From a virus, in the UHGV virus genome UHGV-0320916: a stretch of 30,316 nt of DNA, one strand, 5' to 3'. The notes under the pieces are model-generated. The model was not told the DNA's origin. It made no database searches and saw only the letters and a program-made list of their open reading frames with translations. The position numbers were made by a program, and so were the translations under genes. Below are positions 7,703 through 28,400 of this stretch, piece by piece. The stretch's first letter is position 1. Each line of letters opens with the position of its first letter.

Positions 7703-8359
7703 CTATTTTTTCCCTGAAGCGGAAAACATTACTACAGTACCTTGAACCTTGGTTTTAACATTCTCGAAATGCTCTGAGAGTATATGTGTTAAGCCTTCTT
7801 CGGAATCTTTTGTGTTTGAAAAGATGCCTTTCTGATTGTAAATGCGCATCAGTTTTTGACCGAAGCTATTGTGCACAACTCCATCGCCAAGAATTGTGGC
7901 TCCGTATAGAGTTCCATCGTCAGTTAAGGCCTGCGCCGCATTGCGTATTACACAGCTTTTTGTAGATATATTTCCAGGCAGGCAGTGAAGAAGGTAAAAC
8001 ATGGAAATGGAATCAAATTGACCATGTAACGCCGCGGGATAAGGTTCAAAAACATCATGGCTAATTTTATGTTTAATTTTTGATTCCCCAGCCCTTGTAG
8101 ATGCCGCGTTCAGGCTAGCTTCGTTCAAATCCATTAAAGATATCAGACTACTCTCAGGTACGTGAGTAAGGTAAAACCCAGTTCCAACACCAATATCCAG
8201 ATGGTTGTTACCTAAATGTTCCAGAAAGTGTGGAAGAAGGTGTTCCTTTGTAGGACATCCCCATGCAAGCCGATTTGATACTCCCAAAACCCACCAGTCA
8301 TAAAGCTTTAGGGTAAGTGGTGTGTAAATTTTAGCCCCATCATCTGTGTTTTTTTTCAT
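7703..8359 (-). CDS. ybcY: Class I SAM-dependent methyltransferase (DLP12 YbcY-like)
   Basis: Motif I LDIGVGTGFY; ORF track 7703..8371, ATG at 8359 (MKKNTDD...) has better GGTG spacing; lies between two tfa remnants as in DLP12. Confidence 0.7.
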   Translation of the reverse strand: MKKNTDDGAKIYTPLTLKLYDWWVLGVSNRLAWGCPTKEHLLPHFLEHLGNNHLDIGVGTGFYLTHVPESSLISLMDLNEASLNAASTRAGESKIKHKISHDVFEPYPAALHGQFDSISMFYLLHCLPGNISTKSCVIRNAAQALTDDGTLYGATILGDGVVHNSFGQKLMRIYNQKGIFSNTKDSEEGLTHILSEHFENVKTKVQGTVVMFSASGKK

Positions 8360-8427
8360 TAATTTCACCATGTTATAGTTTTATTTGTGAATTAAATCAA
8401 TTATGGCGATGAATTACAAGGGGTTAA

Positions 8428-8726
8428 ATGCTGCCGCAGCATAGCGATATTGAAATAGCCTGGTATGCTTCGATACAGCAGGAGCCGAATGGCTGGAAGA
8501 CCGTCACCACACAGTTCTACATCCAGGAATTCAGTGAGTATATTGCGCCACTGCAGGATGCTGGGAAATCGCAACGGAGGAAGAAAGATCGTTGCTGGAG
8601 GCATGGAATAAATATCGGGTATTGTTGAATCGTGTTGATACATCAGTAGCTCTGGGTATGAAGCTGTTTGTAACTCATGTTACAGTAACAGCCATTACTA
8701 TCTCGAAGGTGCAAAATGTATATTGA
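8428..8726 (+). pseudogene. tfa: Tail fibre assembly protein (Tfa) homologue with a frameshift: ...[10 protein letters not shown] in one frame, [27 protein letters not shown]... in another
   Basis: Two frames each match consecutive parts of lambda Tfa (IAPLQDA then [23 protein letters not shown]); junction at ~8560-8570. Confidence 0.65.
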
Positions 8727-8839
8727 TTTGATATTTTATAAATTTACTTCGAATCTGGCACGTCAACTTTTGATTAAAGTAATATCAGTTTTCGGCGAAA
8801 AAAGGACCGTGTACATGAGACGATTTCATACAAGAATAA

Positions 8840-8889
8840 CAAAAATATGAATATGCTCCCAATGCAATATATGTTTTGCATTGGGAGCA
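8840..8889 (-). terminator. 13-bp perfect-stem hairpin (gctcccaatgcaa / ttgcattgggagc) 21 nt past the hydrolase stop, U-rich on the minus-strand side
   Basis: Stem 8855-8867 pairs with 8877-8889; minus-strand downstream sequence auauucauauuuuu. Confidence 0.45.
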
Positions 8890-8909
8890 AATAGCGGAAT
8901 ATTTTGAAA

Positions 8910-18759: not shown

Positions 18760-18900
18760 CTTATGTGGTTGGGTGATCTGGCTTTTCAGCCACGTAGTCG
18801 AGAGTCGACGTTGTTTAAAGAGCCTGCCAGTCTGTTCCATTTGGCTTCCAGCGTCCTGCTGACGGTTAAATAGTACGATATGTACTTTATGAGATCAATA
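18760..18900. promoter_or_regulatory. Candidate pL/oL region with nutL expected nearby; contains inverted repeats ACAAtttgTTGT and AGTACgatatGTACT that resemble repeats in the cI-cro intergenic region
   Basis: Position upstream of N on the minus strand; palindromes read from sequence; no promoter assignment verified. Confidence 0.35.
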
Positions 18901-19090
18901 CAATTTGTTGTAAGTTGGCGTGGTTTTTTATAACGCTTTGTATTTAATAGTGTTGTTTTTTAGCGTGGATGTATTGCCTCGGCGATGTAAGGAGAGATCA
19001 GAATTGCGTGGTTTAGTGGGTTGCATCTATTTATTTTTCAATAAATACAATTGGTTATGTGTTTTTAGGTGGGGCGATCGTGAGGCAAAG

Positions 19091-19117
19091 AAAACCCGGC
19101 GCTGAGGCCGGGTTTTT
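19091..19117. terminator. Bidirectional intrinsic terminator (aaaa-cccggc-gctgag-gccggg-ttttt) directly after the stop of the 258-aa gene
   Basis: GC stem flanked by A run and T run; analogous position to the lambda terminator after rexB. Confidence 0.7.
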
Positions 19118-19894
19118 CTAGGCTACCAGAGACTCAATCCAAGAGTCTCTGGTATGGAATGGCAACACTCGTGCGGTATCATTAAATAGTAGTGATAGTT
19201 GCTGTAGCTCAGGTGTTAACCCATCGCTGTCAACTATTACAAATCTATTGTTTATGTCAGGAACGACCTGACTTAAGTCAACAATCTTCCCAACTGTTGA
19301 GTGGGCAGTATTCCATCCCTTACTGCTGGCAAGGCTTACCGTAAACCCGCGTTTTGGTGGTATTAGTCGAGACTCATTCCTTAGCGTTAACGGAACAGTA
19401 ATGTTATGCCCACTAATACCTTTCACTTTTTCCTTTAAGGCTAGTCGCTTCCCAAGCCCTGCTGATTTTAAGTAACTGATTACACATTTTTCGAACTTAT
19501 CGTCTTTGACCTCAGCATACCAATCAGCAGTTTGGGCGGATGCAAGAATCCCACCACGAATAACATTTGCAGTTACCTGTCCAACGGACGACTCATCTGC
19601 CCACGCAGATATCTCTCCAGAGTCATTTAATGAAATTCCTTGCGAAGCGAGTGATGACCTGATCAGATCAATTTTCTTTTTAGTCAGGTGGATGCCGCGT
19701 GATTCAATATTCATCAATGTATCGCAGTAGTCTGTAACCCTATACTGACCACTCATCTCTTGAACGAATACACTTATCTGCTCACAATCATCGTAGTATG
19801 TGAAGGGACTAATAACGCGCAGCAACGTGTCGCTCATTGGGTGGCATTCAAACCCGAGCTTAGATATGACTGTTGAACACGTTACATTTCCCAT
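19118..19894 (-). CDS. Hypothetical 258-aa protein, second gene of a two-gene cassette in the rexB position; no recognised domain
   Basis: ORF MGNVTCSTVISKLGFECHPMSDTLLRVISPF...; start overlaps upstream gene by 13 nt; AT-rich relative to flanking lambda genes. Confidence 0.65.
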   Translation of the reverse strand: MGNVTCSTVISKLGFECHPMSDTLLRVISPFTYYDDCEQISVFVQEMSGQYRVTDYCDTLMNIESRGIHLTKKKIDLIRSSLASQGISLNDSGEISAWADESSVGQVTANVIRGGILASAQTADWYAEVKDDKFEKCVISYLKSAGLGKRLALKEKVKGISGHNITVPLTLRNESRLIPPKRGFTVSLASSKGWNTAHSTVGKIVDLSQVVPDINNRFVIVDSDGLTPELQQLSLLFNDTARVLPFHTRDSWIESLVA

Positions 19895-20424
19895 GATAGC
19901 TGACCTGATTTATCTTGATTAGGTAAAGGTGGGCTGCCTTCATATATGATATTAAGCGCCTCGCAAAAATAATTCCAGTAGCCAAAAAAATCATCTGGCT
20001 TGATGTTCGTTTCAAGCTTAAGTGCAATTTCTTCCCCAGCTGATTCGAAGTACATGTGATAGTGAGGACCTCGAGCCACCTCAACAAAATCTGGATGGTT
20101 CACTATAGATTTATTACGGTGTGGCTTGTTATCCGCAGGGTACGGGTCAAGCGCGTAAATGCGCCTGTCATGAAGAAACATCACAAATGAAATCTTCACT
20201 ATATCCACCCCTTCAACGATAGGAGGACGCCAGTGAAGCATAAATCTTATGCCTGTGATTGGGTTGCCAATTTCATCAAAAGCTTTGAGATCCAATTTAA
20301 ACCAGATTGGGGTTCGTCCCTCACTTCCGGTCCATGTAACTCCGCTAAAAGTTACTTTTTTCAAGCGAGTAATAGCTTGGTCAACCTCTTTCTGGGTAGG
20401 CTTAAAGTCGCCTTTTTTAGCCAC
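19882..20424 (-). CDS. Hypothetical 180-aa protein, first gene of a two-gene cassette in the rexA position downstream of cI; no recognised domain
   Basis: ORF MAKKGDFKPTQKEVDQAITRLKKVTFSGVTW...HRNKSIVNHPDFVEVARGPHYHMYF...; 46 bp downstream of cI stop, same strand. Confidence 0.65.
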   Translation of the reverse strand: MAKKGDFKPTQKEVDQAITRLKKVTFSGVTWTGSEGRTPIWFKLDLKAFDEIGNPITGIRFMLHWRPPIVEGVDIVKISFVMFLHDRRIYALDPYPADNKPHRNKSIVNHPDFVEVARGPHYHMYFESAGEEIALKLETNIKPDDFFGYWNYFCEALNIIYEGSPPLPNQDKSGQLSWEM

Positions 20425-20470
20425 TGATTCGTATCACCATGAAAGTTATTGTTAATACCTGTGCTTCTTG

Positions 20471-21130
20471 TCACCCAAACGTCTCTTCAGGCCACTGACT
20501 AGCGATAACTTTCCCCACAACGGAACAACTCTCATTGCATGGGATCATTGGGTATTGTGGGTTTAGTGGCTGTAGAAACACCTGACCGCTATCCCTGATC
20601 AGTTTCTTGAAGGTAAACTCATCACCACCAAGTCTGGCTATACAGAAATCGCCTGGCTCAACAGCCTGCTCAGGGTCAACCAGAATTAACATCCCGTCAG
20701 GAAAGCTGGGCTTGGAACCTGTTGGTGCGGTCATTGAGTTACCTTCAACCTCAAGCCAGAATGCAGAGTCACTGGCTTTTTTGGTTGTGCTTACCAATCT
20801 CTCCGCATCGCCTTTGGTAAAGGTTCTGAGTTCTGGAGAGAACATCCCAGCCTGAACATGAGAAAAAACAGGGTACTCATATTGTTTTTTAACTGGGGCC
20901 GATGAGTATTCGCCAACAGGTGAAAATGTCCCGTCGTGGTTGAATGATATGTTATCAATACCAAGGTATTTAAACACCACACCAATATCACTAAGAGATG
21001 GATGACGAGATCCGCGCAACCAGTGTCCAATCCCACCCTGCGTCATACCTAGCTCTTCGGCTAACTTCTCTTGAGTTATGCCGAGCTCTTTCATTCTGGA
21101 TCTAGCCAGTTCATACCATTTCATTTTCAT
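20471..21130 (-). CDS. cI: CI repressor: lambda-type C-terminal dimerisation/autocleavage domain with a non-lambda N-terminal HTH domain (hetero-immune)
   Basis: C-terminal ...[131 protein letters not shown] matches lambda CI; N-terminal HTH ...[23 protein letters not shown] differs; start codon uncertain (21124-21172). Confidence 0.85.
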
Positions 21131-21241
21131 GTCCTTATTATTACGCTTTGTACTGGAACCATCCATGCACAATGTGTATTTTTACTTGTATTCGTAAAGT
21201 ACATATTGTATTTTTTTATTCGTGTTTACTATGGAGGGCAT
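21131..21241. promoter_or_regulatory. Immunity-region operator/promoter (oR, divergent pRM/pR) between cI and cro; contains ACAA...TGTA-type inverted repeats
   Basis: Divergent cI/cro arrangement; candidate -35 TTTACT and -10 TATTGT 17 bp apart upstream of the cro RBS GGAGGG. Confidence 0.5.
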
Positions 21242-21457
21242 ATGAGCAACCTACGAAAATATCGAGAGTCACTGAATATCTCTCAAACAACACTTGCTAA
21301 GGCAGTTGGATGCACACAGGGAGCTATCGGACATTGGGAATCTGGTCGTCGCTTCCCAGACCTTAAAACATGCCGTGCTCTTGTTGCGTGCCTAAACAAG
21401 TTAGGCGCAAAAGTCAGTCTTGATGACGTGTTCCCGCCGGAACACAAAGCCGCTTAA
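21242..21457 (+). CDS. cro: Cro-like HTH repressor (not lambda Cro sequence)
   Basis: 71 aa MSNLRKYRESLNISQTTLAKAVGCTQGAIGHWESGRRFPD...; GGAGGG RBS; HTH similar to the cI N-terminal domain. Confidence 0.75.
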   Translation: MSNLRKYRESLNISQTTLAKAVGCTQGAIGHWESGRRFPDLKTCRALVACLNKLGAKVSLDDVFPPEHKAA

Positions 21458-21598
21458 TAAGCGGATCCGCTCTTTGTAACAACGGACATTCGTCCTACGT
21501 CGCTGAAAAGCGAGTTCCAAGATATCTGACCAACTAAGGCCATATGCGTTTCCACGCATACCTTTCAACTAACTATTCACTATTGGAAATCTTAAGAA

Positions 21599-21895
21599 AT
21601 GGAAAGAACAAGTTACAGCAAACTATCACAGCGTGACGTTGATCGCGCAGAAACAGATTTACTTATCAATCTGTCAGCTATTACCCAGCGCGGTCTGGCA
21701 AAGATGATTGGCTGTCATGAATCGAAGATAAGCAGAACGGACTGGAGATTTATTGCTTCGGTCTTGTGTGCTTTCGGAATGGCATCAGACATCAGTCCGA
21801 TTAGCAGGGCTTTTAAGTATGCGCTTGATGGACTCACCAATAAAAAACGCCCGGCGGCAACCGAGCGTTCTGAACAAATCCAGATGGAGTTCTGA
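21599..21895 (+). CDS. cII: CII transcriptional activator (lambda-like C-terminus, divergent N-terminus)
   Basis: ...LTNKKRPAATERSEQIQMEF matches the lambda CII C-terminus. Confidence 0.8.
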   Translation: MERTSYSKLSQRDVDRAETDLLINLSAITQRGLAKMIGCHESKISRTDWRFIASVLCAFGMASDISPISRAFKYALDGLTNKKRPAATERSEQIQMEF

Positions 21896-21927
21896 GGTCA
21901 TTACTGGATCTATCAACAGGAGTCATT

Positions 21928-22827
21928 ATGACAAATACAGCAAAAATACTCAACTTCGGCAGAGGTAACTTTGCCGGACAGGAGCGTAATGTGGCAGATC
22001 TCGATGATGGTTACGCCAGACTATCAAATATGCTGCTTGAGGCTTATTCGGGCGCAGATCTGACCAAGCGACAGTTTAAAGTGCTGCTTGCCATTCTGCG
22101 TAAAACCTATGGGTGGAATAAACCAATGGACAGAATCACCGATTCTCAACTTAGCGAGATTACAAAGTTACCTGTCAAACGGTGCAATGAAGCCAAGTTA
22201 GAACTCGTCAGAATGAATATTATCAAGCAGCAAGGCGGCATGTTTGGACCAAATAAAAACATCTCAGAATGGTGTATCCCTCAAAACGAGGGAAAATCCC
22301 CTAAAACGAGGGATAAAACATCCCTCAAATTGGGGGATTGCTATCCCTCAAAACAGGGGGACACAAAAGACACTATTACAAAAGAAAAAAGAAAAGATTA
22401 TTCGTCCGAGAATTCTGGCGAATCCTCTGACCAGCCAGAAAACGACCTTTCTGTGGTGAAACCGGATGCTGCAATTCAGAGCGGCAGCAAGTGGGGGACA
22501 GCAGAAGACCTGACCGCCGCAGAGTGGATGTTTGACATGGTGAAGACCATCGCGCCATCAGCCAGAAAACCGAATTTTGCAGGGTGGGCTAACGATATCC
22601 GCCTGATGCGTGAACGTGACGGACGTAACCACCGCGACATGTGCGTGCTGTTCCGCTGGGCATGCCAGGACAACTTCTGGTCCGGTAACGTGCTTAGCCC
22701 GGCCAAACTCCGCGACAAGTGGACCCAGCTCGAAATCAACCGTAACAAGCAACAGGCAGTCGTGACAGCCAGCAAACCAAAACTCGACCTGACAAACACA
22801 GACTGGATTTACGGGGTGGATCTATGA
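21928..22827 (+). CDS. O: Replication initiator O
   Basis: 299 aa MTNTAKILNFGRGNFAGQERNVADLDDGYARLSNMLLEAYSG..., matches lambda O. Confidence 0.93.
   Translation: MTNTAKILNFGRGNFAGQERNVADLDDGYARLSNMLLEAYSGADLTKRQFKVLLAILRKTYGWNKPMDRITDSQLSEITKLPVKRCNEAKLELVRMNIIKQQGGMFGPNKNISEWCIPQNEGKSPKTRDKTSLKLGDCYPSKQGDTKDTITKEKRKDYSSENSGESSDQPENDLSVVKPDAAIQSGSKWGTAEDLTAAEWMFDMVKTIAPSARKPNFAGWANDIRLMRERDGRNHRDMCVLFRWACQDNFWSGNVLSPAKLRDKWTQLEINRNKQQAVVTASKPKLDLTNTDWIYGVDL
22277..22400. promoter_or_regulatory. Replication origin inside O: four ~18-bp iterons (tccctcaaaacgaggga-type) followed by an A-rich tract
   Basis: Iterons at ~22277, 22297, 22321 and 22344, then acacaaaagacactattacaaaagaaaaaagaaaag. 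Confidence 0.85.
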
Positions 22828-26729: not shown

Positions 26730-27812
26730 TTAGAACTGATAAACCAGACCTACAGCGACGATGTCGTCGGTATCAATACCAGCTGTTTTGGTAAACTTAC
26801 TATCGTCAATTAAGTTGATTTTGTAATCAACAAAAGTAGACATGTTTTTATTAAAGTAGTAAGTAGCACCGACATCGACATACTTGACTAAGTCTCGGTC
26901 ACCATGAACACCAAGGTCTTTACCTTTTGACTGAAGGTAAGCAACAGATGGGCGCAGACCGAAGTCAAACTGATATTGTGCTACTGCTTCAAAGTTTTGT
27001 GCTTTGTTTGCAATATGGTTATTACCAAAAACGGTCATATTCTGAGTTTCAGAATATGTGGTAGCCAGATAGATATTGTTCGCATCATATTTCAGGCCTG
27101 CAGCCCATACTTCCGCATTTTTGCCGGAGGCATTGAATTTGCTCTTACCATAGGCGACCTGACCGTCAGTGCGATCTGATTTAGCATAGGTTGCACCCAC
27201 GCCGAATCCTTCATACTCATAAGTAGTGGAGAAACCGAAACCATCACCATTGGCTTCAGTTACGTCAGTGCGGTCATTTTTACCCTGATACTGAGCAGCA
27301 AAGTTCAGGCCATCGACCAGACCAAAGAAGTCGTTGTTACGATAAGTTGCAACACCAGTAGTGCGACCAGTCATGAACACATCTGTTTGGGTCCAGGTAT
27401 CACCACCGAATTCTGGCAGAACGTCAGTCCACGCACCGATGTCGTATGCTACACCGTAGTTACGGCCGTAATCGATTGAGCCGTAATCACCAAATTTCAG
27501 GCCTGCAAATGCAAGACGGGTTTTGTCTTTGGAAGAACCTTGAGATTCAGCACGGTTGCCTTTGAATTCATATTCCCACTGACCGAAACCAGTCAGTTGA
27601 TCGTTGATTTGGGTTTCACCTTTGAAGCCAAGACGGGCATAAGTAGTATCACCATCATCTGCATCATTAGAGGAGAAGTAGTGCTTGGCATTAACTTTCC
27701 CGTATAGATCCAGCTTGTTACTGTCTTTATTATAAATTTCAGCTGCCTGAGCAGACATCGCCATCAGTACTGATGCAGCTACAGCAGAAATTGCCACTGT
27801 TAATTTTTTCAT
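26730..27812 (-). CDS. nmpC: General porin NmpC/OmpD family, intact; antisense to late transcription between Q and the lysis genes
   Basis: [40 protein letters not shown]...VGLVYQF; typical OmpC/OmpF-family porin with C-terminal Phe. Confidence 0.9.
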
Positions 27813-28400
27813 TGTACGCCCTTTTTTTGAACTATTATTAAAAAATGATGTCACTGCGCGATAAATATTCATCTAATCAATGTGATTATTTCAAGATGTA
27901 AGTTTTAGTTTCTCATTTAATTTGTGAAGTAGATCTCTATTTTTATCTGAACCTTTTCTATCTAATCCTATTCATGGCTCTTGTCTGAACAAAAATAAAT
28001 CTATTAGCTAATTTATATTAATGGCACTTATTTATAAGCGCTCTATAATTCTTTAGCTTAATTTAAACAAACTAAAAATAACATCGGAAATTATTAACTG
28101 ATTATTTGTTGAGGTTTTCTTATGTATTTGTGGTGGTGTTTTGAACACTCGGTGGCATTCTCACAAATATCATTTAGTAGTTTACGTACGTAAAAAATTG
28201 GTTATGCTGTTAAGAGTGGTTACTTCGTCACACAGCTTAAACCCGCCGTCGAGCGGGTTTTTCCATTTTTTGAGTCTCGATATTAGCTGATAACCCAATA
28301 CCTGAGTTATTCACTGACTCCGAATCTGTTACGTTTCTGCCTTTATTGCGATACGTAGTATCCCCTTAATTTACACCCGCTTTGTCTGCGAGGTGGGGTT

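Follow-up and report, generated by a model that had tools for sequence, protein, structure and literature searches.

What is carried in the slot directly behind the repressor gene of the lambda-like virus genome UHGV-0320916, where lambda itself has rexA-rexB? The stretch analysed here (30,316 nucleotides (nt), hereafter the window) holds at this position two genes, which we call A and B and which lie between a cI-type repressor gene and the early-left operon. We show that A-B is a mobile module that is swapped as a unit between lambdoid phages with different repressors and replication genes, and we consider it probable that the pair constitutes a two-protein anti-phage module, acting by superinfection exclusion or abortive infection and expressed in the lysogen. 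A sequence-only reading of the window had proposed a lysogen-expressed anti-phage module in the rexA-rexB slot as a candidate; as such it is supported by exchanges with exact borders, by the occurrence of the cassette behind other repressors, by matches to the PADLOC profiles PDC-M24A and PDC-M24B, and by a listing in DefensePredictor. Genes expressed alongside a prophage repressor decide which other phages infect the lysogen. The present cassette is found in approximately 1% of complete Escherichia coli genomes, the O104:H4 outbreak lineage among them, and also occurs in prophages across many Enterobacterales.

A two-gene cargo exchanged behind the repressor

Gene A (19882..20424, minus strand, GTG start) encodes 180 amino acids (aa); its product is identical to RefSeq WP_001074607 and resembles DUF6978 and PDC-M24A. 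Gene B (19118..19894, minus strand, ATG start) encodes 258 aa with DUF1828 and DUF1829-like domains. The coordinates bear out the earlier description of two overlapping genes of these lengths that start 46 nt past the cI stop codon and share 13 nt, and the RefSeq annotation of identical DNA contains the same two open reading frames (ORFs). The overlap, ATGGGAAATGTAA (19882..19894, minus strand), has a counterpart of 4 nt (ATGA) in sister variants, an arrangement which suggests that translation of A and B may be coupled. The 46-nt spacer between cI and A (20425..20470, minus strand) folds with an energy (dG) of -3.3 and forms neither a hairpin nor a terminator, which implies read-through of the cI transcript into gene A. 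A Shine-Dalgarno-like GGTG is located within this spacer, 9 nt ahead of the GTG start.

Phages whose cI and flanks are approximately 95–99% identical to those of the window hold other genes in the slot. A diverged A-B pair is present in ev017, ev207, PhiR57_1 and PhiR63_2, a single 283-aa protein without family assignment in 2G7b, a 173-aa protein in an Stx2a phage, an NYN-domain protein in 2B8 and, in E212, an ORF of equal length (285 aa) at the same position, which is known by length and position alone. Homology to 2G7b ends at 19117 and restarts at 20471, and homology to 2B8 ends at 19114 and restarts at 20464, so that the exchanged unit extends exactly from the cI stop codon to the B stop codon. 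It is these mosaic breakpoints, and not AT-richness, that mark the pair as a discrete cargo module. The earlier statement that the cassette is AT-rich relative to its flanks is weak, as its guanine-cytosine (GC) content of 43.3% compares with 46.2% for cI, 49.6% for N, 41% for sieB and 43.2% for the region 16400–22400. We therefore rejected GC content as an argument for foreign origin, the cassette (43.3%) being indistinct from the immunity region (43.2%).

Two further prophages, one of E. coli O104:H4 and one, P22-like, of strain GF4, hold the window cassette at 99.8–100% identity, in each case following a repressor of another type. The replication modules differ as well: lambda O/P genes accompany the cassette in the window, the GF4 prophage has a DnaB-type helicase, and that of O104:H4 has a DnaC-like ATPase. 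Among 5426 complete E. coli genomes, 61 (approximately 1%) contain the cassette, always on the chromosome and in one copy each. The window-type pair is absent from deposited phage genomes, the best B match among them being 50.8% identical.

Co-inheritance of A and B

The two genes are inherited together well beyond E. coli. An A homologue lies directly upstream of B, with an overlap of 4 or 13 nt, in seven species-representative genomes of six genera (Pantoea, Providencia, Yersinia, Xenorhabdus, Thorsellia and Izhakiella). Over all genome loci taken together, A precedes and overlaps B in 10 of 10. The seven full genome loci all have a cI-like gene ahead of the pair; cro, cII and the replication genes lie on its far side in divergent orientation. 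Among 80 loci from IMG/VR, A and B are adjacent in 79 (13-nt overlap in 45, 4-nt overlap in 34), and 77 of the 80 have a cI-like gene upstream on the same strand. One locus of this set (L017–L096) has a B gene without a detectable adjacent A, possibly due to a frameshift, and two (L055 and L062) have no recognisable cI-like gene upstream.

More distant relatives show the same arrangement. Behind each of four metagenomic A relatives (20–27% identity) comes an overlapping B-like gene of approximately 250 aa, and one of these four pairs lies behind a Peptidase_S24 gene. The Pseudomonas phage VB_PaD_phPA-G (PP083311.1) contains an unannotated 194-aa ORF of the A family (locus L104, 1920–2504, plus strand) with the segments RVVAID, HMNK and HPHLH and the tail GQMGFDV; it overlaps an annotated B-like gene by 4 nt and is located downstream of a CI-like repressor gene. 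In the Burkholderia phage phi644-2, gp48 and gp47 are A-like and B-like proteins in matching arrangement.

Three further observations concern these loci. One distant locus adjoins a TacAT toxin-antitoxin pair. A 518-bp contig labelled Actinomadura rugatobispora (L012) carries an enterobacterial-type A/B junction, with a B fragment 57% identical to that of the window, and is probably a contaminant of that assembly. In Providencia and Izhakiella prophages, a 113-aa DUF3024 gene lies between cI and A (L006, 4052–4393; L007, 4053–4394; L011, 4044–4385); the L007 copy matches its Pfam family at 1.1e-26 and the PADLOC candidate PDC-S43 at 3e-35. The cI-A spacers of approximately 290–440 nt in some viral loci may hold this gene too, and it could be a third part of the system or else a second cargo at this site.

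Predictions of a defensive role

In a profile scan of PADLOC at E ≤ 1 (E-values are reported raw, without PADLOC's own thresholds), A and B match solely PDC-M24A and PDC-M24B, in the correct order. Relatives score better than the window pair (4e-15 for B and 4e-6 for A), all 8 B-type proteins tested match PDC-M24B, and B of the ev017 type spans the full model (protein residues 2–249 against model positions 4–254 of 256). Judged by these profile matches, the window pair would represent a divergent branch of PDC-M24, a PADLOC candidate system. The PDC entries of PADLOC are 'guilt-by-embedding' predictions; one study obtained protection with 4 of 8 PADLOC candidates tested, a set to which PDC-M24 did not belong. 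In DefensePredictor (Science 2026), the sister pair WP_000968518 / WP_001062368 carries the label 'Predicted novel defense gene' at log-odds of 5.6 and 4.9 (cut-off 4), and the cluster representative for the A-type protein is WP_001074607, i.e. protein A of the window. In that work 94 units were cloned, of which 45% were validated overall. The pair is consequently less unknown than the sequence-only reading had claimed, PADLOC and DefensePredictor having already flagged it or its sister variant.

We also considered whether the validated DUF1829 system of DefensePredictor was this pair, which was rejected since that system is HipAD. The pair's proteins do not appear in the supplements of Vassallo et al. 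2022, and a literature search found no mention of PDC-M24, of these accessions, or of DUF1828 or DUF6978 in a defence context.

Domain content of A and B

The earlier statement that neither protein has a recognisable motif proved wrong. B scores above the Pfam cut-off for DUF1828 (PF08861; 40.9 bits, cut-off 22), a family matched by all 23 subfamily members, and A matches DUF6978 (PF22398) below the cut-off (23.6 bits, cut-off 29.6) and over the C-terminal half of the model only. DUF6978 matches were obtained for 7 of 18 A-family members, the best at 2e-6. A scan of both proteins against NCBIfam gave zero matches, and sequence and profile searches of PDB chains returned spurious matches only (a designed Kelch-like repeat protein, a His-tag and CCT delta).

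The N-terminal domain of B (residues 1 to approximately 122; 19529..19894, minus strand) corresponds to DUF1828 and is predicted to adopt a fold like that of type III secretion chaperones and YbjN. The C-terminal domain (residues from approximately 123 to 258, plus the stop codon; 19118..19528, minus strand) is DUF1829-like, with a predicted PD-(D/E)xK restriction-endonuclease-like fold of alpha-beta-beta-beta-alpha-beta order; the fold matches were divided between the two domains by secondary-structure layout. This assignment agrees with the published HHpred result for a sister protein approximately 51% identical to B (DUF1828 99.5%, DUF1829 98.8%, PDDEXK clan; DefensePredictor). In an alignment reaching down to 24% identity, the invariant residues of the N-terminal domain are C6, G14, C17, P30, D36, D55, L60 and G93-E94, and those of the C-terminal domain, at 24–52% identity, are W125, F134, V138, S161-G162-H163, W194, G202 and D206.

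The A family is rare, with 22 cluster representatives in 1.84 billion proteins. Its conserved core comprises W31, R88-I-Y-A-x-D93, H102-x-N104-K, G119-P-H121-x-H123 and F153, and is the portion that A has in common with DUF6978 and PDC-M24A. From its conservation, the cluster of Asp, His and Asn residues in this core (D93, H102, N104, H121 and H123) is a probable metal or active site. HNH, cupin and LAS-metallopeptidase readings of the H-x-N...H-x-H cluster were dropped, as spacings and flanking residues do not fit; this rests on our own reasoning, without support from a tool.

A clamp-motif-like tail on protein A

The last six codons of A encode Q175-L-S-W-E-M180 (19885..19902, minus strand), a peptide that resembles the binding motifs of the bacterial beta sliding clamp (DnaN) and is preceded by the Pro-rich linker PPLPNQDKSG. 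After such a linker, nearly all full-length A members end in S-G-Q-[LMI]-x-[LFW]-(x)-[LIMV]-COOH. Examples are QMGFGI, QIGLPL, QMGFNL, QIGLGL and QLGLGI in other Enterobacterales, QLRLL, QMQLL, QTSLL, QMSLEL and QMGLDL in distant relatives, and QMGFDV in the Pseudomonas phage. The strict clamp-type pattern fits 26 of the 33 complete family tails, and a looser Q-x-x-L-L fits most of the others. The tail is kept from Enterobacterales to the Pseudomonas phage while the remaining part of A drops to approximately 20% identity, and in the predicted model of A the tail region has a low predicted local distance difference test (pLDDT) score.

Published beta-clamp motifs come in two lengths, five residues (Q-phi-x-L-F, consensus QL[S/D]LF) and six (Q-phi-x-L-x-L). 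They are usually found at a protein terminus, positions 1, 4 and 5 carry most weight, and they occur for example in Hda (QLSLPL), Pol IV (QLVLGL) and Pol II (QLGLF). Some family tails come close to these peptides, QIGLPL to that of Hda and QIGLGL to that of Pol IV. The codons under the tail vary synonymously, which together with the 4-nt overlap in most variants argues that selection acts on the tail peptide; on the same two grounds we rejected the idea that the tail is conserved merely through a ribosome-binding site or through its overlap with B. We put forward binding of the A tail to DnaN as a tentative and, on the motif likeness, still rather unlikely assignment. The putative clamp-docking tail is nonetheless a new and testable lead on an otherwise already catalogued pair. 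As a separate observation, two CII-like proteins encoded in related loci end in QINLDI and QITLNF and fit the loose pattern (L006, 2455–2802, and L008, 2990–3277, both minus strand). These ends may be due to chance or may represent a C-terminal signal of another kind, and they are a warning as to the specificity of the motif.

The tail could also serve the pair itself. In this alternative, A-B is still a defence module, and the A tail is either a peptide that the DUF1828 domain of B holds, whether to assemble A-B or to keep it auto-inhibited, or else a signal for degradation that shortens the lifetime of A in the manner of toxin-antitoxin-type sensors. Folds of the type III secretion chaperone kind bind extended peptides. 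The resemblance of the B N-domain to these chaperones and the translational coupling of A and B are consistent with such a role; so are the similar ends of the two unrelated CII-like proteins, by which the pattern appears unspecific, and the Burkholderia relative, which keeps the pair without the tail. On the other side, the combination seen in the tail, with an invariant Gln, an aliphatic residue after it and a hydrophobic one at position 4, typifies clamp motifs, and the tail remains constant while B diverges to 24–29% identity, for which a conserved host target fits better than a co-evolving partner. We regard this alternative as possible but, like binding of the tail to DnaN, not likely.

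Proposed mechanism and its weak points

Combining gene order, domain content and the tail, we propose the following hypothetical mechanism for A-B as a defence module, in which (i) A and B would be read from the cI transcript (pRM); (ii) the two proteins would be produced in coupled amounts and would form a complex; (iii) B would supply a regulatory or peptide-binding domain (DUF1828) and a DNA-directed domain of nuclease fold (DUF1829-like), and A would contribute the probable metal site; (iv) the flexible tail of A would dock on the host beta sliding clamp and thereby position the complex on replicating DNA; and (v) the clamp-bound complex would obstruct or cleave the DNA of a superinfecting phage dependent on the host clamp for its replication or, alternatively, would come free once a phage interferes with the clamp. 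We place this full explanation, a defence module together with the proposed A-B mechanism, slightly above even chances, a little below the defence role as such. Its parts differ in strength. A clamp-tethered immune system, in which the clamp is either a platform for finding replicating phage DNA or a guarded host hub whose disturbance triggers the response, appears doubtful and somewhat less likely than binding of the tail to DnaN; any particular effector chemistry is likewise less likely than that binding.

Several observations weigh against a defence module of this kind. With respect to the defensive role, the PADLOC matches of the window pair are weak and partial (A at 3.8e-4 over residues 98–160, B at 5.4e-7 over residues 5–169), and the accessions of the sister pair are missing from the DefensePredictor tables of cloned and validated units. 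In the literature covered, to which the E. coli prophage-defence study of Brenes & Laub 2025 did not belong, neither the pair nor PDC-M24 turned up as the subject of an experiment. The arguments for defence are only partly independent of one another, both predictors drawing on genomic or sequence context. With respect to the chemistry, K181 and E135 vary in the alignment of B at 24–52% identity, for which reason the canonical D...(D/E)xK triad is regarded as absent; the C-terminal domain of B may serve in DNA binding and not in cleavage, or its active site may be a His/Asp variant. The DUF1829 protein of HipAD, the only validated DUF1829 system, is proposed to be an antitoxin-like, DNA-binding partner and not a nuclease. 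The predicted model of A is poor, and no fold match was found from it. With respect to the tail, QLSWEM of the window departs from the consensus at positions 4 (W) and 6 (M), the loose pattern occurs in approximately 1% of unrelated ORFs (2 of 166), the more distant A-like protein of the Burkholderia phage phi644-2 has no tail, and no clamp-tethered anti-phage system was found in the literature.

Alternatives without an immune function

The pair might instead be a non-immune accessory of the phage life cycle or of lysogen physiology, for instance in host replication or repair via the clamp or in the tuning of induction. Lysogen expression from a cI operon does not by itself make a gene defensive, a modulator of replication or repair could make good use of a clamp-binding tail, and the cassette occurs widely in pathogenic lineages, O104:H4 among them. 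The exchange of unrelated cargos at fixed borders, however, resembles that of defence hotspots, both PADLOC and DefensePredictor flag the pair, and the cassette has no tie to a particular replication module, occurring as it does with lambda O/P, a DnaB-type helicase and a DnaC-like ATPase. This alternative appears improbable to us. Still less probable is an addiction module of a toxin-antitoxin-like kind, serving to stabilise the prophage or the immunity region and having no anti-phage role, for although the two genes are small, overlapping and strictly co-inherited on a mobile element, one distant locus stands beside a TacAT pair, and the sole validated DUF1829 protein is proposed to be antitoxin-like, neither A nor B matches a toxin or antitoxin family in Pfam, NCBIfam or PADLOC, 180 and 258 aa are large for a classical type II system, and many prophage toxin-antitoxin systems do defend, so that this alternative overlaps with a defensive role.

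Comparison with known systems

A-B shares with RexA-RexB of lambda the arrangement of two same-strand genes directly downstream of cI and before the operon terminator and pL, and from this position expression in the lysogen and co-transcription with cI would be expected for A-B as well. The proteins themselves differ. Pfam and PADLOC scans at E ≤ 1 return DUF6978, DUF1828 and PDC-M24A/B only, the gene sizes are reversed, and in contrast to RexB, which is a membrane protein, A and B have no membrane segment: their top 19-residue hydropathy values are 1.22 and 0.79 (threshold 1.6), compared with 3.03 for the SieB protein of the window. The scans and hydropathy maxima thereby uphold the earlier view that neither protein resembles RexA or RexB, that a membrane protein is lacking and that the sizes are reversed. 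As there is no membrane protein in A-B, an ion-channel mechanism of the RexB type is excluded.

A and B match the PDC-M24 profiles, weakly and in part, in the same gene order; the tail with the clamp motif belongs, in contrast, to the branch of the window, and the Burkholderia relative lacks it. The sister pair listed by DefensePredictor (ev017 type, E. coli) has approximately 51% identity in B, 38–45% among the A-type relatives of the branch, and the same combination of DUF1828 and DUF1829. DS-6 / HipAD, which consists of a HipA-like kinase and a DUF3037-DUF1829 protein, is likewise a two-gene, prophage-associated defence system, validated and with DUF1829 in its second protein. The window pair differs from it in having no kinase, DUF1828 in place of DUF3037, and an unrelated first gene.

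The A family has in common with Hda, Pol IV and Pol II a terminal peptide of the Q-phi-x-L-(x)-[LF] type after a flexible linker, whereas the remainder of A has no homology to these proteins and the window tail has W and M at key hydrophobic positions. The SocB toxin of Caulobacter blocks replication through DnaN. The prophage abortive-infection protein BstA is encoded beside the repressor locus and is reported to act at phage DNA replication sites (PMC8585504). A-B resembles it as a prophage-borne defence candidate next to immunity genes, and differs from it in that BstA is a single protein of another family, to which no similarity of A or B was found.

If clamp-tethered immunity proved true, A-B would be unlike any characterised anti-phage system that we found. 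A genuine clamp-docking tail would tie phage immunity directly to the host replisome and would suggest functions for DUF6978, DUF1828 and DUF1829. With 1.3 kilobases (kb), two genes and a known native promoter context, the cassette is a small test case, the characterisation of which would realise the predictions of PADLOC and DefensePredictor.

Neighbouring features of the window

The gene upstream of the pair in the operon encodes the cI-type repressor (20471..21172, minus strand, by ORF call), with the Pfam domains Peptidase_S24 (1.3e-28) and HTH_3 (2e-10). The start annotated for cI in near-identical phages maps to approximately 21166, and the counterparts in ev017, 2G7b and 2B8 are annotated as LexA-family regulators. 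Directly 3' of the B stop codon lies a bidirectional intrinsic terminator (19087..19117, both strands) equivalent to lambda tIMM. Its hairpin, CCCGGC-ctcagc-GCCGGG, has a perfect GC stem of 6 bp between a run of A and a run of T, and its folding energy is -20 kcal/mol on the minus and -23 kcal/mol on the plus strand. The terminator is part of the conserved backbone rather than of the swapped cargo, as the homology to 2G7b and 2B8, which ends at 19117 and 19114, indicates. A consensus terminator scan overlooked the hairpin and T-run at 19087–19117, although it did report the boxB hairpin of nutL, and a negative from that scan alone is unreliable.

Beyond the terminator follows the early-left operon, with a candidate pL/OL (18870–18898, minus strand), in which the 12-mer ATATGTACTTTA recurs, inverted, in the OR region (21195–21206); nutL, with boxA at 18815–18823 and the boxB hairpin at 18797–18809 (minus strand), at the start of the operon; and the gene for the N antiterminator (18408–18752, minus strand; Pfam N_peptide 4.4e-32). 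With the hairpin folding on both strands and N identified by Pfam, the pair indeed ends, as described earlier, at a strong bidirectional terminator before the N/pL region.

A gene for superinfection exclusion, sieB (17804–18391, plus strand), lies in opposite orientation in the interval separating N from the cIII/kil region; its product matches Pfam SieB at 6.7e-25 and has a strong membrane segment. The window thus holds at least two candidate exclusion functions, SieB and the A-B cassette, approximately 1 kb apart. The early-left operon also encodes a DUF2528 protein (16845–17213, minus strand; Pfam 6.7e-47) that is kept in ev017, 2G7b and 2B8.

Overall, the window is that of a lambda-like phage, with tail tip J, tail fibre, a moron block, integrase, recombination genes, the immunity region, O/P, nin, Dam and a porin. 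The moron block (7703–11534, minus strand) lies between the tail fibre genes and the integrase gene and encodes a methyltransferase (7703–8371), an alpha/beta hydrolase of 494 aa (8910–10394) and an outer-membrane protease of the omptin family (10581–11534). The porin gene is located in the late region (26730–27872, minus strand).

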